64,000 nt of DNA, taken from positions 762 to 64,761 of the forward strand of contig CAZPYY010000001.1 in the NCBI GenBank assembly GCA_964590995.1, in the 5' to 3' direction. The position numbers and the translations under genes are program-made. Each line of letters starts with the position of its first letter. Positions within the stretch are counted from its first letter, which is position 1. The DNA is from an uncultured Planctomycetia bacterium. Lineage in GTDB: Bacteria; Omnitrophota; Gorgyraeia; Duberdicusellales; 4484-171. A model generated the notes under the pieces. It was given only the letters and a program-made list of their open reading frames with translations, was not told the DNA's origin and made no database searches. Below, piece after piece: positions 22,161 through 62,700 of the stretch.

Positions 22161-22164
22161 TACT

Positions 22165-24002: not shown

Positions 24003-24005
24003 AGT

Positions 24006-26432: not shown

Positions 26433-26760
26433 TTAATATTTAGGTATCGACGGTATATGTATCGGTGGTGGAGTATACACTGGCGGCATATCAATATTCA
26501 CAGGGAATTGCGGCTTAAATGGGTCTCTGTAATTAGGTGTCGGCGGTATATACACTGGTGGTGGATTATATACCGGCGGCGTATAATGATTATTCATCAT
26601 CTGCTGATATACCGGATTCGTTTTTATCTCCGGCGGAGGGTTGTAAATTCTGTTTATGTTTGGAAATTGGCGCATAGTGTTAGGGCCACGGTAATTCCTA
26701 ATAGTATCTATTAGCGGTGTTTTTGGTACATTAAACTGTTGTAAATCCCGCTGAAGCTGT
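26433..26760 (-). repeat. coding low-complexity Pro/Tyr-rich tail (PPVY/NPPP repeats) at the C-terminus of the giant protein
   Basis: protein ends ...YTPPVYNPPPVYIPPTPNYRDPFKPQFPVNIDMPPVYTPPPIHIPSIPKY; DNA shows reiterated ggcggtata[tc]ac units. Confidence 0.7.
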
Positions 26761-35700: not shown

Positions 35701-38700
35701 AGAATATCACCCTCTGTTACGCCTTCGGCATCTTCAATGGAAATAGCCCGGTCCCGCCATCCTTCAAAATGCTCAATTGTCGCCATTTCTTCTTCTGTCC
35801 TGATATCGGCTTTAGGCCAATCCGGATGGCCCAAAATAATCTTTCTCATATCAAACAACAGATCCGGTAAAAAAGAAATAATGGCTGTTGTATTCTTTAA
35901 GTTAAATGTGATATTCTCAACGCTACAGCCCGAGAATATCTTGGCCAACAACTCCCGCCAAGTCTGGCAAAGATTAAAGGTAAGGGCCTTGTTGCCAATC
36001 AGGTTATTTGCCCGTTTAAGCAAGCTGGTAAGTAAATCCTGAGTGGCGGAATCAAGTGCATACCCGGCCAATAAATCCTCGTGGGTTAACCTCTCAAACG
36101 CCGGCGCCGAGGAAGCACCAGAATCACCTTTCGTAGGCGAGCTGGAAGAATCAGCTCTTAGCTCGTAGCTGGTAGCTAGTAGCTGAAAACTATCCGCTAC
36201 AGGCGATGAGCTATTATCTAGCAGTGAGCTGGAGCGGGGGGAAACGAAAGACGAGGTATGAGAGACGAGGGATGAAGACGCGATACGCGAATCTTCCCCC
36301 GGTGAGGCGGCGGAGACGTTAGAGTAATGGTTACTACCCTTACGATTAATATACTGAATCATATCTTTCGCCCATGAGAATATTCTAATGAACAATAGTG
36401 GCTGCTCAGACTCTTTAGTTATCATATTAATAAGAGGTTTATTATCAAGGCATACTCGCACCAAGGCCTGATGTGTTCTTACCAGTTCATAGATAGTGCT
36501 TTTAAATTTTTCACTTCTGACATATGCCTCTTTAGCAAAGATTGTTTTTTTAGGACCTTTTTTTCGTTCTCTGTATTCATCTTTATAAATCCACTCAAGT
36601 GGCAGATACATTTCTGCCCAATTTCCTTTAGCTAAACGCTGTAAATTTTGCATTGTAAAACCAATCTTAGTGATTATGCAATTATCTAAATGCCCGCCGG
36701 CAATGATTAATCTTTGTCCCTTAGATAAATCAACCCTCCAATCTTTTACATGAATAAGGTTAACATTAGGCAATCTTGATTTTAGATAAGAATATCTTTC
36801 CTTAATAGGCATAATGCTGAAATATTGAATATTTGGGAAGTGGTATTGAGCGGAAATTGAATCGGTACGCTTTGTAGCGAAAGAATTGGGTTCTTCACCT
36901 ACCGGCGAGCTGGAGTCAATTGCTCCTTCCTCTCTCAAAGTGTTGACTACGCTATACAACCATGAGTTGATGACGAATAGTCTTGCAATAATACTTGCGA
37001 TATCATTTTCACAATCATATCTTCTAAAGTAATCTTTCAACAATCCCTCTATTTTGGCGCGTTCAATGGCTGTATCGATGACTGTTATTTCTTCGGCCGG
37101 TATGGTCTGTTTAGGATATTCTTTAAGCGAAATCTTATAACTATAAGCAGGTTTTCTTGTAACTTTTTCCCTGTCTTCTTCATCTAGCGCTTGCCTGGAG
37201 AAGATAGCGATAGAGCGTTTCTCCAGTGCAAGTTCTGATTGCGGATACTTTCCGACAAAAACTAATTTGTCTACTAATTTTCTTAATACTTCGTAGTTTT
37301 CCAGCATAAACTCTGATGTAGATAGACCTTCTTTAAAATTAAGTACGCTAAATTGTAAGTTGCCATCCTTATCAGCCGTTAGCCCGTTCTCCATGACCTC
37401 TCTCCTTGCCGATCTGGAGATATTTACCCATAGCGTTGGATGGAATAGCCTTCTCCCACATTGTTCAATCACAAACCTCAATCGCCTCTCAATGAAGTGC
37501 GGTATGTTTTCGTGTGATTTATAACTCTTTATCTCATCGGGTGGCGTACTAAGAATATCTTCTTTAGCTAAGAAGTCATGCATTCTTACTATATTTTTTG
37601 CGCGCGGGAGATTGAACTTCGTAGTTGCGCCAATTATATAGATAAAAGAGGCTGCTCTCTGGATGGGGTCACTAGTATAAATTCCAAAATACGGATTGCT
37701 TGATATGAGGATATGTTCTTCGTAGTCATAATTTATAACTGCGGCTAAGAATCTTTCAAACGGAGCAACGGGCAACAGTCCTTTTCTTGCCATCCCTTCC
37801 AAATGATCTGCCATTTCAGCAAAACCATTATCTCTCAGATACTTAATTGCCATCTGTAGGTCTTCATCTTTCGGCCCTTTTCTATGCAACTGGTCAAACT
37901 CCTTACCAATACCTTCCAAAATACCCTCCAAATCTCTGCCGATTTCTTTTCTAGCCGGCCTTGGGATGCCTGGCATCGCTCTGACTATATCCTCTCCCTG
38001 CCCGTCCGGCAAGCGGGTCCCTTCGGCGGAGGAGGAAGAGGAGGAATTATTTGTCTTTGCAATTTCCTTCAGCACATTCAAAATCTCCTGCCGCAGCGAT
38101 GTGCGACTAAGTTTATTGTCTATGGCGGGCGAGCTGGAAGATTTTCCTTTCAAATCCAGAATCTCCCGTAAAAGATTCCTTTTAACCTGTGCATACAGTT
38201 CCAGTAATACTGGTGCTGTGCACAGCTTCTTGGAACCCCTGTGTATCAAAGATTCCTCAAAGTCAGGGATATCTTTTTTATGAAGGGCATGTGTGGGATT
38301 TAGAAATGCAGACATTAAGAATGTCTTGTTATTTATTCCAGAAAAATAACGTACCAAATGCGAAAGTACTGATTGATCACTCACTAATATTATATCTGCC
38401 TGCTCTACCGCGTCTGCTCTAACAATCTCTATATTATGGAATTTATAAAACCGAGCAAGCCTCTCTCGCATAGCCACATAACCCCGGCAGTAAGAAATAA
38501 TTTTAGTAATAAACTTACAGGAAGACTTTTCTGCTCTAAGCGTTGTACCCGCAGAGAATATTTCTATGCCCATTCTATCCAATGGATCTTGGAGCACTAA
38601 TTCAAGCAATGGACTGCGAAAGACATTAACAGTACATACAACACGAATGCGCTTAATTTGTTTAATTCCTCTGGCTATAAAGATATTCTCGACTGAACGC

Positions 38701-41700
38701 TTAAGCGGCGATGAAGAAGCGGCTTCGCGGACAAATACTTCCAAATAAGCATTTTCTGTCTCAAATGATGTCTCCTGAAGATTAACGGAAAATATTTCCT
38801 TGCCTACAACCCTGAAACCCTGAGATTCTAATAAATCAACGCTTTTGCGGAAGAAAGGCTTGACCACAATCAGGGTATCAGCTTTGATTTTCTTTGATAT
38901 CTGTTTAGAGTTTATTACTTCTAACAATTCTATTAACACCTCATGCTCTGGATTAACCAATAAAATATGGCTCAAGCTATGGCCGGGAATAAATTTTATT
39001 ATATTTGTATCTGTCCTGACAACCGCCAGGTTGTCCAGGTCGACTCTTTGCGCGGCAAGCAAACCCTTTTCCCACATCTGCGCCCACATTATATAAATAT
39101 AATCCAGCGAAAAATATGATTCGTAGATATCCGTGGCAATAACTCCTACATCAGGATTCCTTTCGGCAATAGTTTTTGCGGTTTTGGCTGTTCCACAGCC
39201 AATCTCTAGAATAATCCCCTTACCGCGAAATCCCTCAACAACAAAGTTAACTTTTGTAATATTCTGCCTACTGTTTTTCTTCTGCCTCAAATAACCTTGC
39301 AATCCCGCATATTCAGCGGAAATTGAATCAGTAAACTTTGTAGTGAGAGAATTAGGTTCTTTGCCCACCGGCGAACTGGCCTCAAAAAGCGCCTGGCCCC
39401 TTGAGGCGGTAGTTTTGTAGTCTGGAGTTATATCAGTGACGCAGGGATGAAAAGGCTGTTTAGGAGTTTGAGCTTCGGGTTTCCCTAAAAACATATAGCC
39501 TCTCAGCGCACTTTTCAACATAACTGTCTTAACTTGTGATAGTTCCTGCATTATTTCTGGTATGCACTCTTTGGCCGCATCTATCATAGTTGGAAAAATA
39601 TTACATATTATAAAGCCTCTTTCGGAAAGCAATCCTGCTAAATCAACAATATGGTTTGTAAATTTTCCTTCCCTCACTAAATGGTATAAGCCTAAATAAC
39701 TGTAAATAATATCTAATGTTATAGGACCGATAAATCTTTGAATGTTTTCTACTAGATTCTCGACTACGCCAACAATAAACAGAATATTATCGGGTATCTC
39801 TTTTTTTGCTATAGATAGGCTATATGTATCGCTGAAGGCAATAATAAAGACATTATTGATTCCTTTGTCGTTCAACCATTGGGCCAACTCTATTGGAGCT
39901 GTCAAATCTCCTGCCCCCCAATCTAGTACAAATACTGGTTTGGATGGCTTAGATTTAGCTATCTTAACTATCCAATCATCACGTAATGACCAACCGAGCA
40001 TATAGTTAGAAAAGTCATAATCTATAACTTGAAAAGGAGTGTCGAAGGCCCTCCACCCCCCCTCTTTCACCCACACCCATAGCTCACCACTGGAACTTAT
40101 GCGCACCCTTGGCGTCTTTTTCGCTGTTAAAAGCTTCTCTATCTCTTCCTGAGGCAAGTCTGGTTCAAACACGATACGCCTATTAGCCTTAAATCTAGCC
40201 CACGCTTCGTCTAAACTGAGAAGTGAAGACGAAGCACATTTTTCTGTCGCTATTGCCAGTTTAGCCGCCAAATGAAGTTTTTTAATGGCAGAAGACGCAC
40301 CTCGTTTACTCCTTTTTTTTGTCTCTCCATAATCCTGGTCGCCAGGACGTATTCGTAGCGCGCTCCATGTCGCCACATTTTCATTTTCACCGACTCTCAC
40401 GCAATTGGGCTCAATTTCAAAACCAGAGTGCTGGATAAACTCCTGATGCGCTTTAACAACTTCTTTCTCCTGCCATAAGTCAATTGCGTAATACTTATAA
40501 TGGCCGCCGGCAATAAATAACTGTATTTCGGGTATAAGCCTCAATAGATACATGCTGCTCATGTTGGTTACATCGTACTCATCTTCCCATTCGCCAATAT
40601 TTGAGAACACGGCAATCTTACGGCCCCTGCGGTTAATGATTTTAGCGCATGAGCCGAGAAAGTCCTTATCGGAAATATCGCCCAGATGAGACCGGTAGTC
40701 TTTTCCTTCCGCAAACCCATTGAGCCTCAGCTGTGTTCCAGCCTGTTTAAGTCTTTCCGGAAAGAGCTCTATGATATCGGCAAATTTCAATCCGAGCTTA
40801 AAGCCCGCAAGCGTCAAAATAGCGTCTCCTGCACCGACATCTATACCGTCATAACCATCCAAGCCTCGCTCCATCATATGAATAATCATAGCTGTCGTGT
40901 TTGCCGCGTATCCTTTCTGCGCTAAATCTTTTTGGCTGAGGCTGTTGACTAATATAACATTGGCGCTTAACTCTTTTTTTAGGATTTGGTCTAACCTTTC
41001 ATAACAATAACTATCCATAAAAAATAAATAAGCGATACGGATAACGATAATTTTTTGTTCTCCGCGAACCTCAATCAGGCCGTCTTCTCTATAAAACCTC
41101 TTCTCCCCATAAATATAGTAAGGCTGCCATTTACTAAACCCATCCCATCGCCGTAACACAAGATTTAGCTGTTCGGCAATTTTTTGGCTCAATTGTTCTG
41201 CGTAAGCCTCATCGAACCTTTCGGCTTCTTTATCTGCGGGCGAGCTGGAGAGAAGACTGCCCAGAGAAAACCCTCCTTTTAGACGCCCGAGCTCGCCACC
41301 ATCGTATCGGAATGGATAGAACTCTCCGGTTGTGCTACTCAATTTAACATTTCCACACCATTGTTCACCTCTTGCATGCCAAAGTAATGGTATATTTTCT
41401 TCTTCTAAGGCCGCCAATATAGCTTGTGCATTTTCTTCATTCGAAATCTCAATTTCCTCAATATGCTCCGGTGATACCTCAGGTTGCACCAATATTGCCC
41501 GCAAGATTTCTTTCTGTATAAACGGAAGGGGTGTCAGAATTCTTAAAACCTCCTGGATGCATCCTTGAGCAACGCTCGCAGGTGAGAGGAAAGTATATTG
41601 ATAGGTCTGGGAAGCTTTCAGATGAGCCAAGACAAAGACTTTTCTGTTGATATCAAAAAGAATGAGATAATTACAGTCTATTGCTCCCTCTGATTCTAAC

Positions 41701-44700
41701 TCTCTCTTGCTTCTGTCGCCTCGGACAAGGATTCCGAATTCATCGCGCCGTAATATTGCGGCGGGGCCTTTGGGGTCAATTAGACAATCAACTGAATTTC
41801 CTGAGATTCTTAATCGATATTTTACCGCAGTAATCTTTTTTACATCATCCACAGGCGAGCTGGAGAAAACTGAGTCATTGTTATACGCGGCAATTAATCC
41901 TCGAATTACATCTACCACATCTTCATCTTCTGAGGCCTTTGGCTCACCAAACAAGTCTACGAATATATCCAGACCAAATTCATCAACTATATCACTAAGA
42001 TTTAACTTAACTATGTCTATGATCTTTTCTCGATAGATATTTAATCCGAGATTGCTTGATTTCAATATATCCCGTAAAGACAAGAGCCGCTGAAGCACTT
42101 CTTTCTTAAAATCCTTCCTTCGTTTACTGAATAATTTTAAGAAAATATCCTCTATCTGATGAGAGGTCCGTTCTTTTCTTAAATAGTTTATGAGTAAACG
42201 TAACCCTGATACACTAGCAATATCGCGGGCAGTATCTAATTCCTTTTGTTTAAGTTCAGGGATCATTCTCCACAATTCCTGCTTCACCTTATTTATTCTG
42301 GTAAGAGCACGGCCGGGAGAGCGGCTAAGTCCATAAACCCATAAGTTGCGAATGCGCTGTTTTATCGAACTTTTATAGTAGTTATAGATTTCATAATCAT
42401 CATCCAATAAACTTAATTCATAATCGCTGAGTGGCCCCCAAAAAGAAGAAACATACCGCTTTTCTGACTTTCTAAACCAAAGGGCGAATTCCTCGTCTAA
42501 GTCGGATTCTAAAGAAGTACACCTGATGACCAAACCGTCTTTGATAATAATCCTTACTCTCTCATTAGGATGCCTGCGAAATCTCGCCCATGACCTTATT
42601 CTTGCTCGCCTTAAGCCATTGACTAAAGGTCTGGCACCGCCCAAACGAAGACTTCCGTTGCTGTCTAAAAAACCGTAGGTAGTAACATCTTTAAGTTTAG
42701 CGAATTTCTCCGGCCTTATTCTCCCCCTATAAACATCGATAACCCTCCCTGTTTTATTATCTATAATAGGGAAAAATTCAAACATTGAACAATCATTCAA
42801 AAAGAATATTCTCATAGGCATCCCATTATAGATTTCCAGCTCATACTCTGTATTGCAATAGCCTTTAAATTGAAACGGGCCCATTTTCTTTCCCAAACTT
42901 ACCCGCGCCCTGCTATTGGTTTTACCCCTTACTACTATATGCCCAAACTGCACTCTCTTTTTGTATCGAAGAGGGAGGTCTTCCTTATTTATATAAACCT
43001 GACCGGTCAATTTACCCTCAAAAGAATGAGCAAGAATCTGACGCCACATACCTTTTCTTATTTTTAGGTCCCTATCAGTCTCTGAGGCGATACCGCCTTT
43101 GCTTTCAGGCCTTAGTTGCTTCTGCATCGCAATTATTGTTTTATTCTCTGGGCCTCGAGCCTTAAAATCATCTACAGTGCAAATAGGACCGTTTCGTAAC
43201 TCATTTACATCCACAGGCGAGCTGGAGGAAACTGTATATCTCAACAACGTATCATAGCTCTGCAGTAACGCTGTTTTTGCCTTTTTTTCTACGTCCCCAT
43301 CCCATGCTCGGCAAGGCCTTAGGCTTTGGGCGATTTCATCGCAATAAAATGGCAATATATCTTGAGCGGATTTCAAGAATAACCCTCCAAAAGTAAATTG
43401 TCTGCCTGGGTCAAAATTCTTTATGCGCTGATTATCAATACCGTAATTGAACGCCTTTAATATATCGATGCTTATAAATCCTTGAGAAAGTATATCTCCG
43501 ATAGCCCCAATGAATTTCATAGCCAGGGGCTTTCTCTCGGCTAAGGGATAAGAGGTTAATTCGCTCTCTAATTCTGCAACTTTCTGCTGAATCACTATAT
43601 CAAAACCGGCTAAGCGTGTTAGTTGTGTATTTACCAAACGGTCTGCATACATACTCTGGGCATTGCGATAACTATTTCTTATTGGTCGGGCCCAATGCTT
43701 CTTTATCGGCTTCACAACGATTTTCTTACCTATATATACACGCGCTGTATGTTTAAACTTAGGATTATACAGGACACCGAATCCCAATTCTCTCATCCAG
43801 TCTGTAACATCTAAAATTGAAGCTTTCGTTGTATCTCTCTGAGTACTACATAGTTGTTTTATTAGTCTCATTTCTTCGCTGAGAAAACATTTTGCTACAG
43901 GCGAGGAGGAAGTTCTTTCCTCAACATCTTCTTTATTCTTATTGCTTTTATAGTCTTCTTTAATTAAATGGTCAAATAAAAGATTCAAGAAAGTCCATGC
44001 GCCCCAACCTAATACAATCTTTACTACGCCCCAATTGAAATTCATTACTATCTTTCCTGCGCCTACCATTAGAAAAGATGCTATTGCGGCAAAAACAGAA
44101 AAGAAACCATTAAATCCAAAAAAATCTTTAATAAAAATCTTTAATGGTACGCTAGCTTGAGTTTTTAACCTATTGCTTCTAGCAGTATCAGCAAGATATA
44201 AAGAAACGGCTATTGCGATGCAGCCTAATATTAAAGAATATCTCAGAATCTCGCCAGACAACACATTTCCCACAGGCGAGCTGGAGTGGACTCGATAAAA
44301 ACTGTTTTTAGGAAACACATAGTTATACATTCCCTGAATTCCGCCACTTAAGCGCTCAGAATATGGGAAACAATTAGGAAAACATTCTGCCATTGTGTCA
44401 GCAGCGTGAGTTGTTTCATCAATTATAAGATAACCTAATGGTTTCAGTAGTTCTTTGGCTTTATCTAGCCATTCTTTCGGCCTGCCAAAAATCCTTCTTC
44501 CACCTACAAAATCAATGAATGTCACAAGGTCGAAACTGTGTGGTTTTAAACCATATTGCTTGATATCAAAAACGCCTATTTCGCTATGGACGAACCTAAT
44601 CTTAAGGTCTAATATTAAGTCCTGTTTCTTTAAACTATTGGAAATAGCTATTGCGTACGCTTCAACGAGCTGAGTTTTGCCCTCATCTACATCTACGAAA

Positions 44701-50700: not shown

Positions 50701-53700
50701 ATAATTATACCTATCTCCTCATTTATATCTTCCACTTTATGAAATTCCTGCCTCAACTCATCAGGCAGCAACGCGATATCTTTTTCTTTCAAATCCAATA
50801 AGGCAATAAAGTCTTTATACCTGCTTAGAGAACCGCCTTGATTACTTACCGAAGAAGAAATGGAAGAACTGCTTTCATTATTCTCATTCAATCGCCGTGC
50901 ATTTCCTTTAAGCCTATCAAGATGGTCTTTTGCACCGCCAAGCTCAAGGCCGTAATATTTCCTTAATACTTCCAGCGTTTGCCCCGCATCACGAATAACC
51001 CTTGCCCTATCATCACACTTGTTTAAGGTCATTTCTATGTATGACATGAAATCTCTCTCTATCCTATCTTCCAGCCATGTTTTAAACCTCTGCAATGCCC
51101 CCCGCTGGTATGACCTCTGATCCTTTCTTCCTTCAAAAAACCGGTTGATAGTCACTTCGCTAAAACCAAAAATGGAAGCAAGGACTAAATAACTCACCTC
51201 ATCAAACAATCTCATCTTTACGAACTCAACCATATCACTCTCGGTTAAATTATCGAAGCGAAGCGAGCTGGCGCGCCGCAGAATTACTTCCATTACTTCA
51301 TTTTTTGTGTCTTCTAACTCTCCGCATAAATATCTAAACCCTGAAGTTAAGTAAAACTGAACAACTAAGCTTATCAGCTTATCGTATACCCCGGACTCCT
51401 TAGCGTTACCGGCAAACTCAAGTGCAGCCACGCGCAGCTGCTTGGTAAGATTACTGCGCGACATCCCCAACATATTGGCTATTTCTTGACGGGTATGGTC
51501 AGGATACTTATGTATTGCCTCAATAATTCTCTTTCTTTTCCAGGCATGCTTTGATGTCATATCCCAATTTTTAAGCACTGTTTTTACTAACCTGCGGACA
51601 GGCTGATGATTTGAATCCAGAGCGAATCTCATCATATCTTCAGAGATTTTCCGAGTAAGTTTTGCCCGCAAAGCCTGCTTAAGCGTATCGGGTGCAGCCC
51701 TATAAAGCCGCCTATAGGCCCCTCTGGTTATCTTTGGTTGAGTCCATCTTCCTAAAAGAACCCTTGTTATATAAGAAGGATGGACTTGATGCTGTTTTGC
51801 CAGAACCTCATCAAGCGCTTGCACTGAGATTGCTTTGTTGCGTTGCGCATAGAGAAGAACTTCTGTCTCCCGGTCGTCCAAAACCATATCACGGCGCGCC
51901 TGGCGTATTAAGGCGTCAAGTTCTCGCTCAAGCGCGTTCATTAAGTGCAGGAACCATTTTCTTTGAGGAGACAACCGTGGTGTGTAAGTATTCTTTTCTA
52001 TCGGGGATGAAGCTCCTACAACAGGAAACCCCGCCTGAATAGCAAGAGCTATGTTATTGCTACGGCTTTTCGCTTTAACTGAGTTAATCGAAGAACTGGA
52101 ATGCCTGTCTAAATCTTCTTCTCTCATGCCCATAAGCTGGCAAGCTAGACATATCTGGGCTGATTTTTTTATGTGCTCTCTGGCCTTTGTAAATGCATCT
52201 CCTGCGGCAACAAAGCTTAATCGCTTAACAACAAGCTCAAATGGATAATCATATTCCCACATTGAATAAAACCGTATCATATCTTTTAACGAGGGGAAAT
52301 AATTCCTTTCTTCTAAATCCAGAAATTTAGCTACCAAATTGTCCTCTATCATTACAAACCGTATATCCGAAAGCATAATATCACTCACCACTAGACCTTT
52401 ATATTTACCCAGACTGAAACTCTCCAGCCAAGCCCTGATTAAACTCGTGGCTTCCAAAGACTGTAATCTTATTTCAATATCGGCCTCTTTGACTCCTCTA
52501 TCCCTCAAAATACTCTCCATATCTTCCCTGGTAAATTCCTCGATAACTTCCTCTATATAAACCGCTTTTGCCCTTTCAAAAGAAATATATTCAAAAGGCT
52601 GGGGAACAGGCGAGTACTCCTGAAACCTGTCATAAAAGTGGCTGGCAATCTCAAACCTTTCTTCTACGCCATAACGAATGCCTGTTTCACCGGAAAGTAT
52701 CTTCACAATTACCTCGCCATACTCAGGGTGCCGGGCAAGATATACAGAGGCGTTCTTACCCTGATGACCCGTCATGTGGGATATATCGATACCTTTTTCT
52801 TCTTTCAATTTACCCAATATAATCTTCTCTATTTCCGAAACGTAACCAATGCTGCTGCTTGAGCTGAGACCATGCGAGAAAGTAGCGGTTACCGGCGAAA
52901 GCGCTTTCAGATTAGTCAAAAAATAATAAAGTTTTGGTTCTCCTGCTGAATTAATAACTGAGCTATTTAGCTGCCGTGCTTGAGCCCTATGATGCGTACC
53001 GGTCGCAATTGGGCTGCTGGAGTCAACATTTTTCTTTGCAGCAGCACGCTCTAAAATAATTCTTTTCGCCTCTTCAATAGAATCAGTTACCTGATAAAGC
53101 GATACATCATCAGCATTAACCGCTTTTAAAGGAATCATTACCGCGCGAATCCAATCATCCAACTCACCCCAGAACTCACGCCCTATAAGAATAATTGGCA
53201 CTGGCTTAATCTTGCCAGTTTGGATAAGACAGAGCGTCTCAAAAAGCATATCAAGGGTATCAATACCTCCGGGAAAGAATATTAAACCTAAACTGCTGTG
53301 TCGTTGCATAGCAGTTTTTAACGCAATATGACTCTGAAAACAAAAGCCTCTATCGCCGGGTAGCTGTCTCCTGATATGTTTTCCTTCATACATCGTAATA
53401 AACCACCCCATTTCTAAATTAGCTTTTTGCTCCAAATGCTGATATGCCTTGCCTATTGCTTTCGCTATACTTTCTTCACCGCGACGCATGATTAAAATAC
53501 GTTCATTATTAAGCGAAATAGATAGCTCATGCGCCATCAGCGAGAATTTACTGGTAGTATCAACCAATCTGCCACCAAGAATAGAAACAGCAGGACCTAA
53601 GCGGCTCAATATGCGCGTGGCTCTGAACAACTCGCTGATAAAAACTCTGATATCAATGCCTCGCGGCTCAATCTGTCTGACTCTCAAATATGCGTCAAGA

Positions 53701-56700
53701 TGTTGATAAGCTTCCTTCTCTGTATGTTTAAGATGAACCAGTAATGCTTTTGGCGAAGGCATTAATCCTAACGCATGTGCTCTGTAGAGAAATTGCATAA
53801 ATCGATCATAGAAATCTTCATTAATTAAAACCAGTGGCTTTTGATTTCCAGAATTTCTTAGATTAAACGAAAGAAGCTCACCAATCTCATCCAGGGTACC
53901 AAACCCACCAGGAAAGGCTGACCCACCCAGACTCTTAAAAATAAACATTGCTTTACGTGTGAAAAAATAGTTAAAAATATTCGTTATGTCTTGATATTTA
54001 TTCGATAGTTGTTCATGAGGAAGATTGATACATAAACCAACTGAATTAATAAACTCACGCAAATTCTTATCAACGCTAAGCGCACCTTCGTTTGCTGCGC
54101 GCATAATCCCCGGACCGCCACCAGTAACTACCGAATATCCACCCCGCACTGCTCTCTTACCAAAACGAACAGCTTCTTTATAAAAATGATGGTGGGACTT
54201 GAATCGTGCCGAGCCAAAAGCAAAGAGAGCTGGCCCTAATTCTATGAGCGCACTCTTAGACGCTAGCCATTCATTGATAGTTTGTTCAAAGAATCTCTCT
54301 GAAAGTATGTTGTCGCCTCTTTTATTCCTACTGGATACCGGGCTGCTGGCCTTGTTCTGATTCAACAAGAACATTGAACTGGAAGATTTCTTTTTCCTTC
54401 TTGAACTCTTTTTCTTCTTTTGTGATTTCGCGGAAACAAGATCATGCGTTAATACACGGGAAATATCAATTTCGTTTTTATCGACTCCTTTGGCTTTAAC
54501 TGACCCGCGTATGACACCGTAATGAATAATCTTAATCACTTTTGCGAATGCTCTCTCAAAAGAATAAGAAAAATCCTCTGGCTCTACGGTAAACGCCGCT
54601 GCCAGCATCTTTGCCAGGAACAAGTTACTGTCTTTTATCTCGACAGTAGTCATTACCCTTAATATCTGCTTTAATCTCATTAAAGCAAATTCATTAGTAG
54701 AAAATACTCTTACAACTTCATCTTTTATCCTATCAACATACAATCTTCCTATTTGGCTATCATCTAAACTATCAAGATATTCGTCAAAACCAAGAAGGTA
54801 ATGCCCTAAATGATAAGGAGGTTGATCAGGATACCTTTTACGTACATCTTCCTTTAGAAATTTAATTATTTCTTCTCGTGGTAAGCCTTGAGCTAGCAAT
54901 TCAATAAGCTGGTTAAACGAAGACAAGAAAGCTCCACCGTCGTTTTCATCTTGTAACTTGCCCGCAAACGGGCTGCTGGAATGGTTAAAATAATTATTGC
55001 AACACCTGAGAGCATCATTAAAAATTTCCGCGATGATGTGGTGGGAAAAGTGTTCTCTGCCTATTCTTATATTATGCTCTATTATTCTCTTTCTAAAATC
55101 GGCATCATCAATTATCCTCACCATAAGCATGATAGCTTTCTTTGAAACTGTATCAGTATGAGAGAAAAATGATTTTCTATCAATCAGCGGCAGTTTAATT
55201 ACCTCATCTTCATCAATTTCCATGGTTTCTATAGCCCATAACCCTTTCGCACGTATATCAATTACCCACACCGGGTGAGGATAAACAACAAATGGCCTCT
55301 GATAATAAGCAGCCTCTATCTTAGCATTGCAAAAACCCTCTTGATACGATGGTATTATTATAAGGTCAGCTGCTTCATGTACCTCCCGCAGGCTAAAAGG
55401 TCCAAAGGTTCCCTCAACAGACATTACAAGATTGACCCTCTTCTCTTTGGCAAAACGCTCTAACAGTAACATATAACCTATACCTTCGTCTGTCGCCGGA
55501 TGGGTAATAATGAGGTGCATTCGCCGGTGCGGATATTGCTGCTGCAATTGAGCGGCAATCTCAATGGCCAGTTCTAAATTCTTGCGCCTAATAATTCTAA
55601 GCGGCGCGATCAACAATATGTCATCGGGATGAATATTATGAAATGCCCTGAATGCCTCTCCTGACCTTCTGTTCATGTGCGGTAAATTCTCGAAATCCCT
55701 TGCGTTAGGAGCTATGGCTACCCGCGTATCATATTTATTAAACATCGTTAACTCCTGATACGAATTAATAACTACCGTATAGAGGTCTTCGATCCCGCCA
55801 TAACTTCTACCACCCGCGATCTTATTCAGCCGCCCTGTGACCTTCTCGTTATCGGTCTCGTATTGCTCACGTTCCCACCAGTAATCATGATTGTGGGTAA
55901 TGGTAAAAATAGTCTTATCTTTCATTTCATGTTTTAATTCATTCATAATCTCAACCACCGCGAGCGACAATGCAATATTTACCGGAAGCGACAACACATT
56001 CTCCGGAATGACAAAATCTATGTCATTAGATATAATGAATTTCTTCAATCTTGACTTTATACAATCTTTTAAAAGATGGAATTTATCGATTACCTCATCA
56101 AGTTCCTGATTGAGCTTTCTCTGTTCAGTTTCTTCCTCAATGCTAAGGCCTTCTCTTTTCTGTTTCTCCTCAAGCTTATCTAACTGCTTAGCCAGACTGA
56201 ACAATTGTCCTGTTAATTCTTCAATCTCTTTATTCTTAAAATGGCAGAGAGAATCAACACTCATCCCATCAGCAATATCACTAACGCCGTCAACCTCACC
56301 GGCATAGAAATATACCTCTGCCCCACCCTTCTTGCACACCTTTGCCCACTCTATTAATTCATAGGTAACGCCGTCGCGCGCTTTCTTGCTTATGCGAAAC
56401 GATAAAAACAAAAATCTTTTACCGGCAGCCAGGCTCCTAAGTTGTTTAAATATTTCGCCTTTTTTACCTAATAACTCAAGAGTTGAAATAGCCTTATCAG
56501 CGTTAGTTTGCGGCTCTTCTATAGCCGAACTGCTGGATTCTTCACCATTGTGCTCTCTTATTAATGTTGTTGCAATCGGGCTGCTGGAATCTTTGTCCGG
56601 GCTAGGTAATGTCTTTAATCTCTGCTCTATATCCTCTAATTGTTCATCTAGCCAAAGATGAAAATTATACGAATTAGTGAATTCATCAATAAAATCAAAT

Positions 56701-59700
56701 GCCTTGATAATCAACTCTTTTATTAACTCCAATCTATTCTCATCGGCATCGTTTAAAGTAATATTAAAGAAAGGCTTACTTATGGGCATTTTTGTTTCTT
56801 TTGCTATTAATGCTGAATGCAAATCTTGTAACTTCTTGCCGTCTTCCAAGATCTTATGTTTCTCGCCCGTTAATCTAAATCTACCTTTTGGAAAATCCCG
56901 GAAGGCAAGGATGATCGGCCAAGTTTTTAAGTCTAATTTAAATAAGTCTTTTAACCAAACAACAAGATCAACAATACAAGCAGTTGACCTAATATGGATT
57001 CCCCGATGATCCTGTAGTTGGACTACAAAAGTGATGGAAGTCTTCTTAATTGACGAGCTACAGAGAGTAAAAAGGGACCTGGCCCCTTTTATGTTATTTC
57101 TTAATGACTCTTTAAATAATCCTCTAGTCCACTGTAAGGTATCTTGATCGTTAATTTGTACTGGACTTGCGCAATGTTTCTCATCAATAGTAGTTATATC
57201 CACAGGCAAGCTGACGCGAAGGGATGCTGGATCTATGCGTATGCCTCTGGGCCCTTTTCCTTTATGGACCGCGGCTGCAAAGTATGCGCCTCGGACCTTA
57301 ATCAAATACACAGTGCCAGAGTCACCGCCGACAGGTTTGGCCCCTAACGCCACTATTATATCTTTTTTTATAAAAACCGTATATCCGCTAGATACCGTAT
57401 CGTTATAGCCGCTCACCAGAGTAATAAACAGTCCTTCGTCTAACTCGGATGCTATGGGAACCGGCAGAAGAGCTCCTCCGCGTACTGCTTTTTTCTCAAT
57501 TACAAGCATGGCCAGGTCAACATTTGGATCTCGCCAGATTACCCCTGCCTTACCTATCAATTCATCAGTGTTAGTTCTAAGTATAACCTTATCTCTTTCT
57601 TTAACCACATGGGCACAAGTTAAAAGGATGTAGGCATCTTTTGTCTGTTTCCATACAAAGGCGCTCCCTAAACGGGCAATCTTAACAATCCTTCGAGAAA
57701 ATGCTCCTTTTTCTCTATCCTGGGCAACCTTTTTTTCTAGATTTTGCCTTGCTAATTCTGTCTCAGGAGCTGCTAAAGCTAAAGCTATTTCTTTCACATC
57801 GTCTCGGGGGGTGATTGTTCTTAAGATAAAGTCGATATAATACCTTTTTTCTCTTCTTTGTTCAACGGTTGCCGTAAGGGATTTCAGAGCTAAAGCTATT
57901 TCTTTCACATCATCGCGGGGGGCAATTGTTCTTAAGATAAAGTGCATAGAATAACCTTTGATTGCCCGGATAAGTAAGTCCAATTCCTCAGCTGCATCAG
58001 CTATTCTTTCAGCTGTTGCTTTGAGATCAAGGTTATCTTCAGCAACAATTGCTTTAAGCATAAAACCGACGCAGTAAGCTGGTATTCCTCTTTGGGCCAA
58101 GGTGTTAGTGCAAAAGTTAAGAGCTAAAGCTACTTCTTGAGTGTCATTTCGAGCAGCGATTGCCTTCTGAATAAAGTTAATAGTATGCTTGTCTATTCCT
58201 GTTTGCCATAAGGTAAGTTCAAATTGTCTATTCTCTGCTAAAACAGGTGAAGAGGCAAGCCATCCATTTTGAATATTTTTGTGCAAACTTATCTCTTTGA
58301 ACCTCTGGCCTAACTCAGGCAGGGTGATATCCAGCTCGCCCCGGATAAGTTTGAATGCCTGTTCATATTGTCTGGCGACTCGAATAATACTTATTTTGTC
58401 ATGGCTTATTTCATAGGCAGCCTGCATCATTTCCAGCCACTTAGTGTTATTGTTTTCTTTATGGGCATAATACAGCTTAGCTGCTTCTTGCAGATACTTT
58501 CCGAGAAGTTCCTGGGATTTGCTGAAATAAAAATCGACAATCTTCCTTTTTTCTTCGTATTCGTCTCCTAATTCAAAATGGTGCACGATTTGTTCAAAAG
58601 TATAATCTGTACCGGCAAAAACATCCATCAACCAGCCATTCACCCCATGTTCAATGTATTCAGCCGCACAGCCAGTTTTTGTGGCGATATTTAAGTGGCC
58701 ATTAACGGCTGCTCTTCCATCAGACGTTCCGCCAGCCTCACGGGTTGAGCGCGGCATGCTATTCCATACATCGCAGGCCTGGGTAGCGACTTTCATAATC
58801 TCAGTTCCCGAACCATCGACAAAGATAAATTTGCCTTTCATATCCTCTCTATCAGCCATTATCTTAAACCAGTCTACCCAATCCTTGCCGGCTGCATCGC
58901 GACCCACTCCGCCCATGAAGAAATTCCCCGCCAGGCCATAAGAATCACCCCATGGAGTCGGATACAATTTATCTCTCTCGCCTACAACCCAGGGAAGAAG
59001 GTCAAACAATATGCGCTGCTCTTTATACTCAACAAACCTGCGCACCAGACCAAACAAAGGCCTATCTTGATATTCGAATCCATAACCCTTTGTTGCCTCT
59101 ATGGTCTTGTTAAGCTGCGTTTTCATAGAACAACCTATCTCGTAAAGCACCTTCCCTGTAATTTGCTCTCCAGCTAACTCAAGTTCAAGAAGCTTTTGGC
59201 CCTTCCACTGCTCCGGACAAGAGCCGTTGGTGATCGCTATAACCTTATCAGTATTATCAGGCACAATGATCAGCTTGGTAGTCTCAGCATGCTCTTGTGA
59301 TACAGCATTGATAACTTTGACTCTTGAGTTTTCTGCCAGCCGCCTGGTCAAATTCACTCTACCGTCTCTTACTATATCTTCCGGAACCAAGTCAGGGCCG
59401 ATATTTTCTCTCAACCACCAGGCATCAGAATAAATCCCTAGCGCGGCAGTTTCCGGAGTATGAGTTGTGAAAAGGACTTGCGTATTCGCAAAGATGCTTT
59501 GCTCGCCCTTTTCTCTAAACTGGTCATTATCGAAATATCTAATATCATTCATCATTGCCTGAAGCAGAAAGAAAGTCTGAGCTTCGTTGCAACGTAAGAT
59601 GTCCGGAGCAATCCCAATTTGCTTAAAAAACTCAACATACGCCCGTCCTAAGAAAGCCATTTGTCGCACCTTTCCCGGCTCTCTAGGATAAAGCCCATAG

Positions 59701-62700
59701 AAGATTTCCGGCTGGCGCACCTGTAACACCGGAATATTTTGCACTAATGCTATATACATCCGGGCATTGTAATCAAAACCCCTAAAATTAACATTAAATC
59801 GGAACGCCTCTTTCCCTGTTTCCTTAGAACCTAACGGCCTTAGGCCTTCAATATTATTCCAATCAATCCCTATATAGCGCTTGCCATCATCATGCTTATC
59901 CACATAGTGCTCATACAACGGCATAAACCCGACAGCTCGCAGGCCAATAAGGCCAAATCCTATAAAGGTTTCACCTGAGAGAAAACCCAAGCCACCAGAA
60001 GCCTGCGCCTGTTGGGCAGTTTGGTCTTTGACCACATCTAAAAATGCCTCCATCGTCGCATCAAGGACAAACGGCCCCTGCCTTAAATATTGCTTCAAGC
60101 CTTCAATATCAGTTATCGGGCTGCTGGATTGCTTACCCAAAATATGCTGATCATTTTCCCAATCTTTAAGTATTCCCTTTAATGGTTGTGGATAATGTGT
60201 ACAATCTATATCAAGCCCGAGCATCTGGCCATAGATAAGGGTAAATTTAAAGGCCGCGGTACGCACATCGACAACTGGCAGCATGCGGGTAGCATTATAC
60301 ATAATATCCAGCACTCCCTCGGGACATTGCTGCATATATTTCATAACCAGCTCAGCCCAGGGCCTGTTAGGAAACCTATCATGGTCTTCTAAGTCTTTTG
60401 TAGTCACGCTCTTATCCAAATGATAGTGGTAGGCATAAATACGTGCCGAGGCATCTTCAAGACATGCCTGAAGATATCTGGGCGAAAAAGACTCAAATAG
60501 ATAGCCATTTCCTGTCAGAGGGTCGTAAAACTTTTTCCCGGTTTTCTCCTCCCATACCGGTATCCATACGTTTAGAATCTGCTGAGGGGGAGCGCCGGTA
60601 TAGCTGGAAACAAGAATTGCCGCGGTTATCATAAATTTTTTATCGGCCATACCTGCGGCTTCGCGCGGCGGTATAGACCATTGGGCTGCTACGCTGGTTG
60701 CGCGAATAGCCGGAATCGAAACAGGAACATTCCAGGGGCCAAATAAGAATTTCCCTTTAAGTTTTCGCGAGTATGCTGTCATCTGATAACTCCATGTCAG
60801 ACCTAACGTATCATCCTGGTGGGCCTTGCCCGCCATATATACGTTAAATCCAAGACCACCACCAAAGCTACTTTCGCTCTTCTGAGGATTTTCGCAAACA
60901 TAGTCTAATCCACTTAAGGTGGTATGTTTGAAACTCCTGCCGGGCATCAGGGTAATAAATTTAATCCACTTATAATCACAGATGCGCCGGGCCTGAATAA
61001 GTAAAGGCCTGATTTTCTCAAAAACAACGCCCCACCAGTCTTTAAGCAGTCTGATAAAGCGCTCGGCCGCCCTTTGTTTCGCCTCCCATAATTCATATTT
61101 GTCTAGTCTCTTCTGTCCCATAGACTCTAATTGTTCGGGAAGCATCCAGAAAAACGGCCAAATAGAGTCTTCGATATAGAAATACTTTTCTTTAAATCGG
61201 CCGAAACGTACCTCGTCAGCCGCCATCACCTCTTCGTGTTCAACCCCCACTGTGCCAATACATCGTGCTTGCTCACTTATGAAGTACCAGGGATCATATC
61301 TTCCGCTCTGCTGGGTTATTTCCCCGAGTATCTGCCCATCCCACCCCGTTGTATTCATTACCATAGCCGTATCACTAAATACCGGAAAGGCGGCAAGTTG
61401 CACTGTATGACAAAACGCCATAATACTTTCTTTTGTCCTCTGCAGAACACTGATATCTTTAAACTCATGATGATAGAAGATGTCAGGAACACCGGTTGCG
61501 GCAAAGGCCTCGTGCACCTGTAAAATATCAAGCTCAATTCCTAGCGCCTCAAAGGTCTTGAATGTTGCTCGGCTATAATAAATTGCCTGGGCCAACCGGG
61601 ATTCGCTGTCAGGATATTGCGGATACAATTCTCCAGCAACGTCATCAGTTAGATGAATCAAGAGTACAACCGCATCGCCGGGTGAGCCTTTCACCTTTAA
61701 GCGCCATGCCTCAACTTTGGTTTTTATCCTTTTGTTGTATAGAGGAAATTCTACTTCTATTGCCTGATCAAGGCTATAGCTCTCGATATCATCAGAATGA
61801 AGCAGGTCATCCCAATCTAAAACAACATTGTTAAGCTCAGGGGTCTTAACTGGATTTGTCCACGAAATGACCTCTTTCATGCCGCCTAGATCACCTTTAT
61901 CGCAAGAACGATTAATAACTTCGGCCAAAACCGCAAAATCTTCTTGGTTATCCCCTGTTTCTTCTTCAACGATAAGCACCTTTCGCCCCGATTCAAGCGG
62001 AAGCAGGGACTGCATATCCCCGCTATTCAAAATAACCACCTGGGTTACGTAATTAAGGGCCTGGGAAATATCGTCATCAGGATGTAAGCCTTCGGAAATT
62101 ACCAGTTTCTTTCCTGACATTGAATCAGGAACTAAATAGCCGTCAATCAATCCTCGAATATTATGCGCCAATTCATCAGAGCTAATATGCTCTTCAACTT
62201 CATAAAGACGAAATACCGCATGCTTCATTGACTGCTGTACGCCTCGGAGGTATTTAGGTACAGAAAAGAAGTATGTCCCTCCGTTGGCAGGTAATCCCCG
62301 CATAAATCCTCCGTTTAAAATACCTAAACCTCCGCCCATTGCCCCTTCAAGGCCATACTGAGACATAGTTGCCTCTGCGCACATCACCCCAATCTTTTTA
62401 TTTTGTAATTCCTGGGCAACAGGATAAACAAAAGGCTGGTCAGAGATATTCCGCGGTTTAATCTTTTTCTTCACTTTATATATTCTTCTCTGAAGCGTCA
62501 GCTGTTTATCTCCCTTTCTGATTATTAGTTCAACCTCTATATTCTCCCGGCCAAAACGCGGGTCCAAATGATAAGAATAAATACGCATATTAGCATCTCT
62601 TACCTCCACTTCTGCTCTATCATTTAAGTCTACCTCAAAGCTTAATTGGCCATCAGTCTTAAACTGCAAGTAAAAATTCAGTCCTTCTCTAGCTTTTATC

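Follow-up and report, generated by a model that had tools for sequence, protein, structure and literature searches.

An arginine-type branch of glycogen-phosphorylase-like modules in an Omnitrophota giant protein: putative PLP-independent glucosyltransferases

The window, a stretch of 64,000 nucleotides, carries on its minus strand a giant, polyprotein-like ORF (26433–63989) that encloses two modules related to GT35 glycogen phosphorylases. An ORF scan gave a product of at least 12,518 amino acids, whose N-terminus lies beyond the window end, where the reading frame is still open. The two modules lie within this single frame and together span 58245–63539 on the minus strand, as do all features described below; the initial annotation had recognized both as GT35-like but overlooked the ORF of at least 12.5 thousand amino acids around them. 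Pfam and NCBIfam searches on pieces of the ORF revealed, besides the two GT35-like modules, a Trypsin_2 protease, a GT4 module, two LOG domains, an HTH, a methyltransferase and HEAT repeats. Giant class 1 comprises ORFs of Omnitrophota origin with at least 10,000 amino acids and many Pfam families, none of them dominating (10.64898/2026.06.07.730766). Its length (at least 12,518 versus 10,000 amino acids) and its at least eight unrelated domain types place the ORF among the Omnitrophota multi-enzyme giant proteins, and both modules have their closest homologs among Omnitrophota MAG proteins. The ORF is thus a multi-enzyme, polyprotein-like host of both modules, and it resembles the Omnitrophota giants described previously (10.64898/2026.06.07.730766; West-Roberts et al. 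2023, 10.1101/2023.11.21.568195) in exceeding 10 thousand amino acids, in its many unrelated enzyme domains and in its HEAT scaffolding.

Each module is a cassette of its own, bounded by S-S-S-P-[VI] junctions. Modules 1 and 2 meet at an SSSPI junction (60114–60128; TCC AGC AGC CCG ATA), beyond which, N-terminal to module 2, lies the more divergent phosphorylase-like region that had been noted before, here module 1. Homology to L003, a 93%-identical copy of module 2, starts precisely at this junction, and an ASSPV junction (58242–58256) marks the boundary with the following module. The latter (giant amino acids 1916–2471; 56577–58244), mentioned for context only, contains a Trypsin_2 serine-protease domain at 57315–57668 that retains the His, Asp and Ser triad motifs (TCAHVV, VDLAML and GGDSGT). 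The GT4 module, two positions downstream of module 2, resembles mannosylglucosylglycerate synthase (4e-39).

Module 2 (giant amino acids 1292–1915; 58245–60116) matches the better-conserved module previously placed at 58,260–60,115, and we located all of the motifs listed for it: GGLG (59985–59996), FTTHTP (59454–59471) and the C-terminal EA[S/G]GTS block, which reads EAGGTSDGR (58713–58739) and is included in EAGGTSDGRAAVNGHLN. GGLG, which is invariant (100%) in the Lys-type and the Arg-type lineage alike, had been mislabelled a glucan-binding block; in GT35 and GT5 it is the glycine-rich loop that covers the phosphate/donor site. The AlphaFold model of module 2 (pLDDT 93.8) matches glycogen phosphorylases in Foldseek at E = 5e-31, the best being the Segatella copri enzyme (ScGP, PDB 9l6i), in keeping with the GT-B fold of phosphorylase-like topology expected of GT35 members. 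The short GT35 branch TIGR02094, exemplified by ScGP (PMC12912991), is also its best sequence relative (1e-11 by phmmer and 2e-21 by profile against 9l6i), and the two have GGLG, NE, TTHTP, NG, RR...YK and EA.GTS in common. In ScGP, R507, R508 and K513 bind phosphate and H316 is a substrate residue (PMC12912991). All four are kept in module 2, the former three as R359, R360 and K365 in the RRFVEYK block (59022–59042) and the last as H219 in FTTHTP; the substrate and phosphate residues of GT35 present in module 2 further include N297, E460, G463-T464-S465 and GGLG.

Module 2 scores under half of the curated cut-off of TIGR02094 ('alpha-glucan family phosphorylase'; 1.8e-25, 89.7 versus 191.7 bits); five other Arg-type representatives (86–166 bits) also stay under it. 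It falls far below the TIGR02093 cut-off (14.5 versus 552.9 bits), and PF00343 was not reported for it at E ≤ 0.01 in the Pfam search. By contrast, PF08323, the GT5 N-domain, passes its threshold in module 2 (26.6 versus 22.7 bits) and in nine of ten Arg-type representatives, a match in common with the GT5 synthases (E. coli GlgA, 2qzs; Arabidopsis SSIV, 6gne). The likeness does not extend to the whole of GlgA: module 2 reaches 23.8 bits against TIGR02095 (cut-off 328.45) and 16–21 bits against PRK00654 models (cut-offs 560–616), and GlgA scores of all Arg-type members tested (24–91 bits) are under the cut-off. GlgA enzymes are marked by a C-domain E-P-C/F-G-L-x-Q signature and by the lysine of K-x-G-G-L. 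Module 2 instead has a phosphorylase-like EA.GTSD.R (EAGGTSDGR) where GT5 has E-P-C-G-L-x-Q, and A-S-G-G-L-G, with no lysine before GGL; canonical GS-type modules in P0204 and P0224 show FEPAGLSQ in alignment with it. The ATKTGC block (58668–58685) occupies the position of D-G-W in canonical phosphorylases. Its lineage consensus is A-T-x-T-G-G, the final cysteine being an unusual residue in the module 2 copy, and the T-G-G presumably corresponds in register to the R-x-T-G-G-L of glycogen synthases, which is a lead only. With 624 amino acids, module 2 is shorter than ScGP (852 amino acids), lacks its DUF3417 N-terminal region and, unlike ScGP, is embedded in a giant ORF; it is about 140 amino acids longer than GT5 enzymes. 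Judged by these signatures, module 2, like its lineage, sits between the GT35 phosphorylases and the GT5 glycogen/starch synthases, as an Arg-type, GT35/GT5-intermediate GT-B module.

At the end of the EAGGTSDGR block, Arg468 (codon AGA, 58713–58715) occupies the column of the lysine that forms the Schiff base with PLP, K680 in rabbit glycogen phosphorylase (GP). The initial annotation had read this column in the same way and had named a profile alignment as a check of its register. Three independent alignments agree on the arginine: phmmer aligns R468 with K609 of ScGP, a clade-profile alignment pairs EASGTGNMK of human liver GP with EAsGtSdqR and so places no lysine there, and MAFFT alignments that include 54 canonical members of the family likewise put Arg in the Lys column. 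In ScGP, K609 bears the PLP (PMC12912991). There is no lysine within 11 residues of Arg468, which together with the gap-free alignment of the block excludes a register error. Other residues of the PLP pocket have changed as well: GGVGRD, D-G-S-G and T-G-C replace GKAHP, E-N-Y and D-G-W, whose Lys, Tyr and D-G-W columns are 93–98% conserved in Lys-type sequences and variable or different in Arg-type ones, and YKR is altered too. With the Schiff-base lysine replaced by arginine, covalent PLP binding would be lost in module 2 and throughout the Arg-type lineage, as had been proposed for the module. It is very improbable that module 2 is an ordinary PLP-dependent phosphorylase in which the arginine stems from misalignment or a sequencing error, or in which PLP sits non-covalently or on another lysine. 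A single base separates AGA from AAA, and in classical GP the Schiff base is merely an anchor and not itself the catalytic group; yet the register is the same in all three alignments, the flanking 11 residues offer no lysine, the arginine recurs in L003 and in 105 relatives, and the other pocket residues co-vary with the Lys-to-Arg change, so that this explanation is close to refuted.

Across 234 aligned domains, the Lys column holds Arg in 105, Lys in 106 and Thr or Ser in 12. The Arg-type sequences represent at least 105 clusters below 50% identity from at least four phyla (Omnitrophota, Planctomycetota, Elusimicrobiota and CPR bacteria), and a neighbour-joining tree groups all 45 near-full-length ones into one clade with zero Lys-type members. 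Arg-type sequences are thus a large, monophyletic branch of the glycogen-phosphorylase family that is undescribed and so far uncurated. Mean identity within the lineage is 34%, and G-L-G (100%), E178 (100%), H219 (96%), N297 (100%), R359 (100%), R360 (99%), Y364 (99%), K365 (100%), E460 (100%), G463 (96%), T464 (98%) and S465 (98%) are nevertheless kept, values that are somewhat inflated because the rows were gathered with a profile made from Arg-type sequences. The pocket around PLP, by contrast, is remodelled. The GKAHP lysine (98% in Lys-type) is variable, the Y436 column (93% in Lys-type) has become S or T, D-G-W has become T/G-G-G, and the YKR arginine (94% in Lys-type) has become E or S. 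In GT35 and GT5 an aromatic residue stacks on PLP or adenine; the lineage does not conserve it, so the sequence shows no evident nucleotide pocket. Module 2 itself agrees with 51 of the 55 most conserved lineage columns, and its most conserved block contains two odd residues, G462, which is absent from 104 relatives, and C483, where 83% have Gly. Compared with L003 it shows a dN/dS of 0.125 at a dS of 0.27, and this copy is under purifying selection. Stand-alone Arg-type copies of 510–620 amino acids occur in CPR (Falkowbacteria, with small genomes) and Planctomycetota genomes.

These patterns bear on the earlier proposal that module 2 is a phosphorylase fold devoid of catalytic activity and kept for its binding of glucan. 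Such a pseudoenzyme, binding glucan or sugar-phosphate or serving as a scaffold in the giant protein, is in our view unlikely, although several features would suit it: the Schiff base is missing, PLP is to our knowledge essential in all characterised GT35 enzymes, neither the PLP-stacking Tyr nor the Lys of GKAHP remains, residues 462 and 483 are odd, and the module is one among dozens in a polyprotein that also holds HEAT-repeat and scaffold parts. A scaffold, however, does not need His219, Asn297, R359, R360, K365, E460 and G-T-S to be 96–100% conserved at 34% mean identity. Nor does it account for an arginine that is itself invariant in at least 105 clusters of at least four phyla, for the dN/dS of 0.125, or for the fusions to UDPGP and PGM domains described below, which suggest a metabolic step. 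The stand-alone copies in small CPR genomes, too, are hard to reconcile with a dead protein. Conservation of the ligand residues would also be compatible with a non-catalytic sugar-phosphate- or glucan-binding protein; the invariant arginine, the conserved ligand residues and the low dN/dS would fit a working enzyme whose cofactor or donor chemistry has changed, unlike a decayed site.

We consider, with modest confidence, that module 2 is most likely an active, PLP-independent, retaining alpha-1,4-glucan glucosyltransferase of the Arg-type lineage. Since this branch preserves the remainder of the active site, the module is probably a working, cofactor-free enzyme and not a dead relic. In the proposed mechanism, the exchange of the PLP-anchoring Lys for the invariant Arg and the remodelling of the PLP pocket would make covalent PLP binding impossible, and the module, which keeps the full set of glucosyl- and phosphate-holding residues common to GT35 and GT5, would act as a retaining transferase of glucosyl units on alpha-1,4-glucans. 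The cleft vacated by PLP, together with the Arg, may take over the binding of the donor phosphate or nucleotide. Candidate reactions are glucan synthesis from UDP-/ADP-glucose or glucose-1-phosphate, or phosphorolysis. GT5 synthases likewise use no PLP. The fungal retaining GT4 trehalose phosphorylase of Schizophyllum commune carries out phosphorolysis, or synthesis from glucose-1-phosphate, in a GT-B fold without PLP and so offers a precedent for such chemistry; it differs from module 2 in its family (GT4) and its disaccharide substrate, and has no specific sequence relationship to it beyond the GT-B fold.

Related proteins link the Arg-type modules to glucan metabolism. The fusion partners of Arg-type modules are GH13 (9 of 26), GDE_C (2 of 26), PGM and UDP-glucose pyrophosphorylase, the UDPGP and PGM domains being found in P0127 and P0132 and the UDP-glucose pyrophosphorylase in P0127. 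Stand-alone members are located near a GH57-GT5 gene and adjacent to PGI and ROK glucokinase genes. An Arg-type and a canonical GS-type module coexist in P0204 and P0224, and the homologs P0004 and P0005 begin, as judged by eye, with signal-peptide-like N-termini. Clues to the donor conflict: the UDPGP and PGM fusions may point to synthesis, whereas the GDE_C fusions, the coexistence with GS-type modules and the signal-peptide-like N-termini may point to degradation or to an extracytoplasmic site. We slightly favour a synthase-like reaction in which the glucose donor is activated. An active GT-B glycosyltransferase on an acceptor other than an alpha-1,4-glucan, for example a compatible-solute or cell-envelope glycoside, is rather improbable: module 2 also has weak Glycos_transf_1 matches in Pfam and the nearby GT4 module resembles a mannosylglucosylglycerate synthase, but all top sequence and structure relatives use alpha-1,4-glucans, acceptor-side motifs of phosphorylases and glucan synthases (NE.., THTP, NG.) are retained, and the fusion partners GH13 and GDE_C are glucan enzymes.

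PF08323 ('starch synthase catalytic') is the commonest sugar-metabolism domain of the Omnitrophota giants, occurring in 153 proteins (10.64898/2026.06.07.730766), and these domains probably belong to the same module family as module 2. West-Roberts et al. 2023 describe giant proteins without known cleavage points (10.1101/2023.11.21.568195). The Lys-to-Arg change, the GT35 relationship and the recurring junction motif are mentioned in neither of these two papers.

Module 1 (giant amino acids 151–1291; 60117–63539) is a GT35-like paralog that has diverged strongly and carries about 380 additional amino acids at its N-terminus. It has no Pfam, NCBIfam or PDB sequence match and only three homologs were found (P0121–P0123), but BLASTP aligns it with module 2 over about 500 residues (5e-15), the two modules being 23% identical, and hhalign connects it to the module-2 family with a probability of 98.9%. 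Its GT-B core (giant amino acids 530–1291; 60117–62402) has an AF2 model (md7a5581f8427; pLDDT 72, core 80–95) whose best Foldseek match is again 9l6i (1.4e-20); an insertion that separates the GGLG loop from the remainder of the N-domain (61839–62231) is modelled with low confidence. The core keeps GGLG, the His, RR..YK and the Glu; TNG has lost its Asn to D, and the Thr-Ser of GTS has become M-A. Its activity is doubtful. Unnoticed in the initial annotation, the last Lys of its block EAAGMADKK (60636–60662; Lys codon 60636–60638; REAAGMADKK in context) lies in the PLP-Lys column, and EAAGM.DKK is kept in P0121 and P0122. Modules 1 and 2 are ancient paralogs of a glycogen-phosphorylase-like GT-B enzyme.

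Module 2, the better conserved of the two phosphorylase-like modules, occupies amino acids 1292-1915 of the giant protein (58245-60116, minus strand) and carries GGLG, FTTHTP and EAGGTSDGRAAVNGHLN exactly as the initial annotation had written them. Its AlphaFold model, built with 63 sequences, is very confident (pLDDT 93.8), and a Foldseek search with this model returned the Segatella copri glycogen phosphorylase (ScGP; PDB 9l6i) first (5e-31), followed by classical phosphorylases, with starch synthase IV at ~1e-24. In ScGP, PLP sits on K609 and the substrate is contacted by H316, R507, R508 and K513 (PMC12912991). HMMER aligns these four contacts with H219, R359, R360 and K365 of module 2, and pairs K609 with Arg468. 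The profile of module 2's close relatives likewise places an Arg opposite the Schiff-base lysine of EASGTGNMK in human liver glycogen phosphorylase, and MAFFT alignments with 54 canonical family members give the identical register at the PLP column, free of gaps. These three alignments confirm the earlier proposal that arginine replaces the PLP-binding lysine, and the profile alignment that might have restored a lysine to this position returned Arg. A register error can be rejected because the block aligns without gaps and has no Lys nearby, the closest lying 12 residues away. The Arg468 codon is AGA (58713-58715); a sequencing error of AGA for AAA is rejected, since Arg is also present in the copy on another contig, L003, and in 105 relatives.

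Against TIGR02094 (alpha-glucan family phosphorylase), module 2 scores 89.7 bits (1.8e-25), far under the curated cut-off of 191.7, and it differs from GT35 in lacking both the PLP lysine and the GKAHP/ENY/DGW pocket. Pfam's GT5 'starch synthase catalytic domain' is matched above its threshold by the N-terminal half of the module; the module differs from GT5 in having no glycogen synthase C-domain signature and in falling below the GlgA cut-off. Module 2 thus appears to resemble a GT35 or GT5 enzyme in its working while belonging to neither family by these tests.

The arginine is found well beyond this one gene. Seven close relatives were full-length (33-55% identity), all of them from Omnitrophota, and each one has EA.GTS..R. 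When 1.84 billion representative proteins were searched exhaustively with a profile, thousands of relatives came back, the best 150 of which we aligned, together with earlier matches, to one HMM. Among the 234 domains that cover the PLP column, 106 carry Lys (Lys-type), 105 carry Arg (Arg-type) and 12 carry Thr or Ser. In a rough neighbour-joining tree, midpoint-rooted without an outgroup, all 45 near-full-length Arg-type sequences form one clade that contains no Lys-type member; mean identity is 34% inside this clade and 22% between Arg-type and Lys-type sequences. Named Arg-type members come from Omnitrophota, Sedimentisphaerales (Planctomycetota), Elusimicrobiota and Candidatus Falkowbacteria. 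We therefore read Arg at the PLP column as a lineage character and not as a lesion. With TIGR02094, five Arg-type representatives reach 86-166 bits where the cut-off is 191.7, and with GlgA 38-91 bits where it is 328, so that neither of these curated models claims the lineage. A literature search returned no paper on a GT35-like lineage without the lysine; a Chemical Reviews article (PMC11046441) mentions no such GT35 protein, and the lineage is absent from both papers on Omnitrophota giant genes (10.64898/2026.06.07.730766; 10.1101/2023.11.21.568195).

A second, independent clade without the lysine lies inside TIGR02094 and consists of Bacteroidota-type 'alpha-glucan family phosphorylases' (Runella, Rapidithrix, Ferruginibacter; our proteins P0031, P0047, P0056, P0058, P0064, P0072, P0095, P0100, P0103, P0110, P0112 and P0115). 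These have Thr or Ser at the column (EASGTSGM[TS]AAMNG), with GKAHP and TNGVH replaced by GKPYP and TNAQN, respectively, and form their own clade in the neighbour-joining tree. Separately, a conserved N-terminal region of ~400 amino acids, without a Pfam match, precedes the glycosyltransferase part in many Arg-type proteins of Omnitrophota, where profile positions 1-165 match, and more than 40 other representative proteins have it too (together P0005-P0007, P0124-P0126, P0129-P0131, P0133 and P0227-P0271).

Upon comparing the two types column by column, we noticed that the residues kept in the Arg-type lineage are those with which phosphorylases and glycogen synthases alike grip the glucosyl and phosphate groups: G-L-G, E178, N297-G298, W304, R359, K365 and E460 are conserved at 100%, R360 and Y364 at 99%, T464 and S465 at 98%, and H219 and G463 at 96%. 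The changed columns are those surrounding the cofactor. The Lys of G-K-A-H-P, conserved at 98% in Lys-type sequences, is variable in the Arg-type; Ser or Thr replaces the Tyr of E-N-Y (93%), T/G-G-G replaces D-G-W (93-94%), and Glu or Ser replaces the Arg of Y-K-R (94%), the last possibly a charge swap with the new arginine. The copy in the window agrees with 51 of the 55 lineage columns conserved at 80% or more, and only G462 and C483 are peculiar to it. Between module 2 and its 93%-identical counterpart on L003, dN/dS is 0.125 at a dS of 0.27. This pattern of conservation and selection points to a constrained active site with an altered cofactor or donor pocket, and not to decay.

The initial annotation had taken the loss of the lysine to mean a catalytically dead fold kept for glucan binding. 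That reading is not borne out by the lineage-wide arginine, the retained substrate residues and the low dN/dS, and we consider a dead scaffold unlikely. Residual use of PLP is highly improbable for a module whose lysine and surrounding cofactor pocket are both changed. We lean instead, with modest confidence, towards module 2 working without PLP, as a retaining alpha-1,4-glucan glucosyltransferase that represents a new subfamily, the Arg-type. Such an enzyme would be catalytically active, would bind the phosphate or nucleotide of its donor with the arginine and the vacated PLP cleft, and would act on an alpha-glucan.

An alpha-glucan role for Arg-type modules is well supported by the domains to which they are fused and by the neighbours of stand-alone genes, as read from sequence. 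Among 26 multi-domain proteins scanned, nine join the Arg-type module to GH13 alpha-amylase-family domains and two to the amylo-alpha-1,6-glucosidase domain GDE_C; the module is also fused to phosphoglucomutase in P0132 and one more protein, and to UTP-glucose-1-phosphate uridylyltransferase in P0127. The stand-alone Arg-type genes P0162 and P0221 have either a GH57-GT5 fusion gene a few genes away or genes for PGI and a ROK glucokinase directly after them, which is a weak glucan or sugar signal, and the contexts of the stand-alone homologs P0003, P0007 and P0199 were uninformative. A non-glucan acceptor for module 2, against which the fusions speak, is improbable.

The evidence on the direction of the reaction points both ways. 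A synthase working with activated glucose is favoured by the uridylyltransferase and phosphoglucomutase fusions, by the GT5-like N-terminal domain and by the missing PLP pocket; the nucleotide of GT5 enzymes sits in the part of the cleft that PLP fills in GT35. The GDE_C fusions, the coexistence with a glycogen-synthase-type module in P0204 and P0224, and the signal-peptide-like N-termini (judged by eye) of P0005, which has the shared N-terminal region, and P0004, which lacks it, favour a degradative, phosphorylase-like role. P0204 (3,430 amino acids, also with GH13) and P0224 (4,485 amino acids) each hold an Arg-type and a canonical glycogen-synthase-type module (FEPAGLSQ) in one polypeptide, and therefore the two module types are probably not redundant.

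Glycogen phosphorylase is the textbook enzyme that uses just the phosphate of pyridoxal phosphate, and it has long been asked how, and for what reason, PLP was taken up by a fold of nucleotide-sugar glycosyltransferases. As a large, constrained sister lineage that combines a phosphorylase C-domain signature with an invariant arginine and is structurally equidistant to glycogen synthases, Arg-type proteins would be concrete material for testing this. All of the evidence comes from computation, and the proteins already carry loose annotations: the same clusters are labelled 'glycogen/starch synthase' by NCBI and 'glucan/starch phosphorylase' by JGI. Because of this inconsistency, glycogen synthesis or degradation may be misassigned in metabolic reconstructions of Omnitrophota, CPR and Planctomycetota. 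In addition, the most frequent sugar-metabolism domain reported for Omnitrophota giants, listed as 'starch synthase', is probably the Arg-type module, so the real chemistry of this module bears on what these proteins do.

Module 1 (amino acids 151-1291; 60117-63539, minus strand) matched nothing in Pfam, NCBIfam or PDB sequence searches, and only three homologs were found in 5.8 billion proteins. Its homology surfaced only against module 2, by BLASTP (5e-15, 23% identity across ~500 residues) and hhalign (98.9%). Since its GT-B core is also well predicted, with 9l6i as the top Foldseek match, module 1 is a true paralog of module 2, with an N-terminal extension of ~380 amino acids and an insertion of ~130 past the GGLG loop. 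It retains GGLG, the His, RR..YK, G-K-A-H and the Glu; N-E-G-H has become H-E-A-F, T-H-T-P has become C-H-T-V, T-N-G has become E-D-S, and G-T-S has become G-M-A. Its catalytic competence seems doubtful because the phosphate-binding Thr-Ser and the Asn are gone. Its PLP column holds Lys (EAAGMADKK; homologs keep EAAGM.DKK). As module 1 shares with Arg-type sequences an Asp two residues ahead of this column and a T-G motif, this Lys may be a secondary change from Arg and not a retained PLP site. Homologs of each module are flanked by other modules in P0001, P0121, L003 and the contig L004, so the two are not an obligate pair; a recent tandem duplication is rejected on the 23% identity and this lack of kept adjacency.

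Both modules lie in one minus-strand frame found by ORF scan (26433-63989; 12,518 amino acids). This frame has not closed where the window ends on the right, and the complete protein must therefore be longer. A reassigned stop codon is ruled out as its source, because the remaining 26 ORFs, read with the standard bacterial code (table 11), show nothing unusual in length; they encode housekeeping functions (Opp-type ABC transporter, class II aminoacyl-tRNA synthetase, ClpB/C, RadA-like). Besides the two GT35-like modules we recognised, all on the minus strand, a Trypsin_2/HtrA-like serine protease straight after module 2 (57315-57668, inside the module at amino acids 1916-2471; TCAHVV, VDLAML, GGDSGT) with an intact His/Asp/Ser triad, a GT4 module resembling mannosylglucosylglycerate synthase (54969-56576; NF041101, 4e-39, below cut-off), a tandem pair of LOG/'lysine decarboxylase' domains (53010-54338; PF03641, 1.5e-33, two stretches), an HTH, a methyltransferase and C-terminal HEAT repeats over 1,475 amino acids (26436-30860; PF13646, 5e-78, nine stretches). 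Most of the giant protein beyond these has no Pfam match. The nearest homologs of both GT35-like modules are in Candidatus Omnitrophota MAGs, and the architecture matches the 'multi-enzyme metabolic cluster' class of Omnitrophota giants (2026 preprint, 10.64898/2026.06.07.730766).

Between the modules we observed a recurring S-S-S-P-[V/I] motif (for example at 60114-60128, 58242-58256, 56574-56588 and 44271-44285, minus strand). SSSP occurs 24 times, with 0.15 expected from shuffles, and the count rises to 29 when SSP[VIALMF] is included. Nucleotide conservation is limited to ~14 nt, with the core TCC AGC TCG/AGC CCG GT: TCCAGC[TCG/AGC]CC occurs 18 times (0.11 expected), and 15 of 23 SSSP junctions use TCC-AGC-(TCG or AGC), with 0.75% expected from the gene's own serine codon usage. 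The two variants are segregated along the gene, AGC being confined to the 5' third (53011-63551) and TCG to the 3' part (31786-44285). The 8.7-kb Omnitrophota contig L004, one open frame throughout with a 54%-identical module 2, has the same SSSP[VIL] junctions and the same TCCAGCTCGCCG codons, and P0200 (7,695 amino acids) has the variant [AV]SSP[VIL] 15 times. Most other giants with Arg-type modules do not have the motif, and it therefore appears specific to certain lineages; a literature search for SSSPV or SSSPI with Omnitrophota found nothing. On L003, nucleotide homology to the window begins exactly at a junction, at the boundary AGCAGCCCG/ATA (AGCAGCCCG/ATAACTGAT; L003 856-900, window 60100-60145), and the module upstream is unrelated and carries an HExxH-like motif. 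This implies that modules are swapped as cassettes, with breakpoints at the junction.

The embedded Trypsin_2 protease is a candidate for cutting the polyprotein at these junctions. HtrA-type enzymes favour Val, Ile or Ala at P1. A phmmer search with the protease domain found no match among all collected homologous proteins, and no cleavage points are known for such giants (West-Roberts et al., 10.1101/2023.11.21.568195). Taken jointly, and tentatively, these features could describe a natural PLP-free phosphorylase/synthase lineage, an ancestral pre-PLP state or a reversion, that would still stand today midway between glycogen synthase and glycogen phosphorylase. Its arginine, the second residue of the E-x7-[E/K] motif, would stand in for the PLP phosphate, electrostatically or as an acid-base group, or else bind a nucleotide diphosphate. 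Omnitrophota would use these modules as exchangeable cassettes in giant polyproteins, with the conserved 14-nt junction serving both as recombination breakpoint and as processing site for the embedded serine protease.

Some further features of the region are recorded here. G+C is 0.44-0.455 across both GT35-like modules (58001-62000) and 0.37-0.42 elsewhere in the window. A short internal repeat (…FILRTIAPRDDVKEIALALKS… / …FILRTITPRDDVKEIALALAA…) lies in the interval between module 2 and the protease (57600-58240, minus strand; amino acids ~1916-2100), and a Pro-, Tyr- and Asn-rich tail (…PPVYNPPPVYIPPTPNY…) follows the HEAT repeats. About 1.4 kb downstream of the stop codon of the giant gene are the two permeases and two ATPases of an Opp/Dpp-type oligopeptide ABC transporter (21249-24986, minus strand), with a small ORF (25902-26417) in between.
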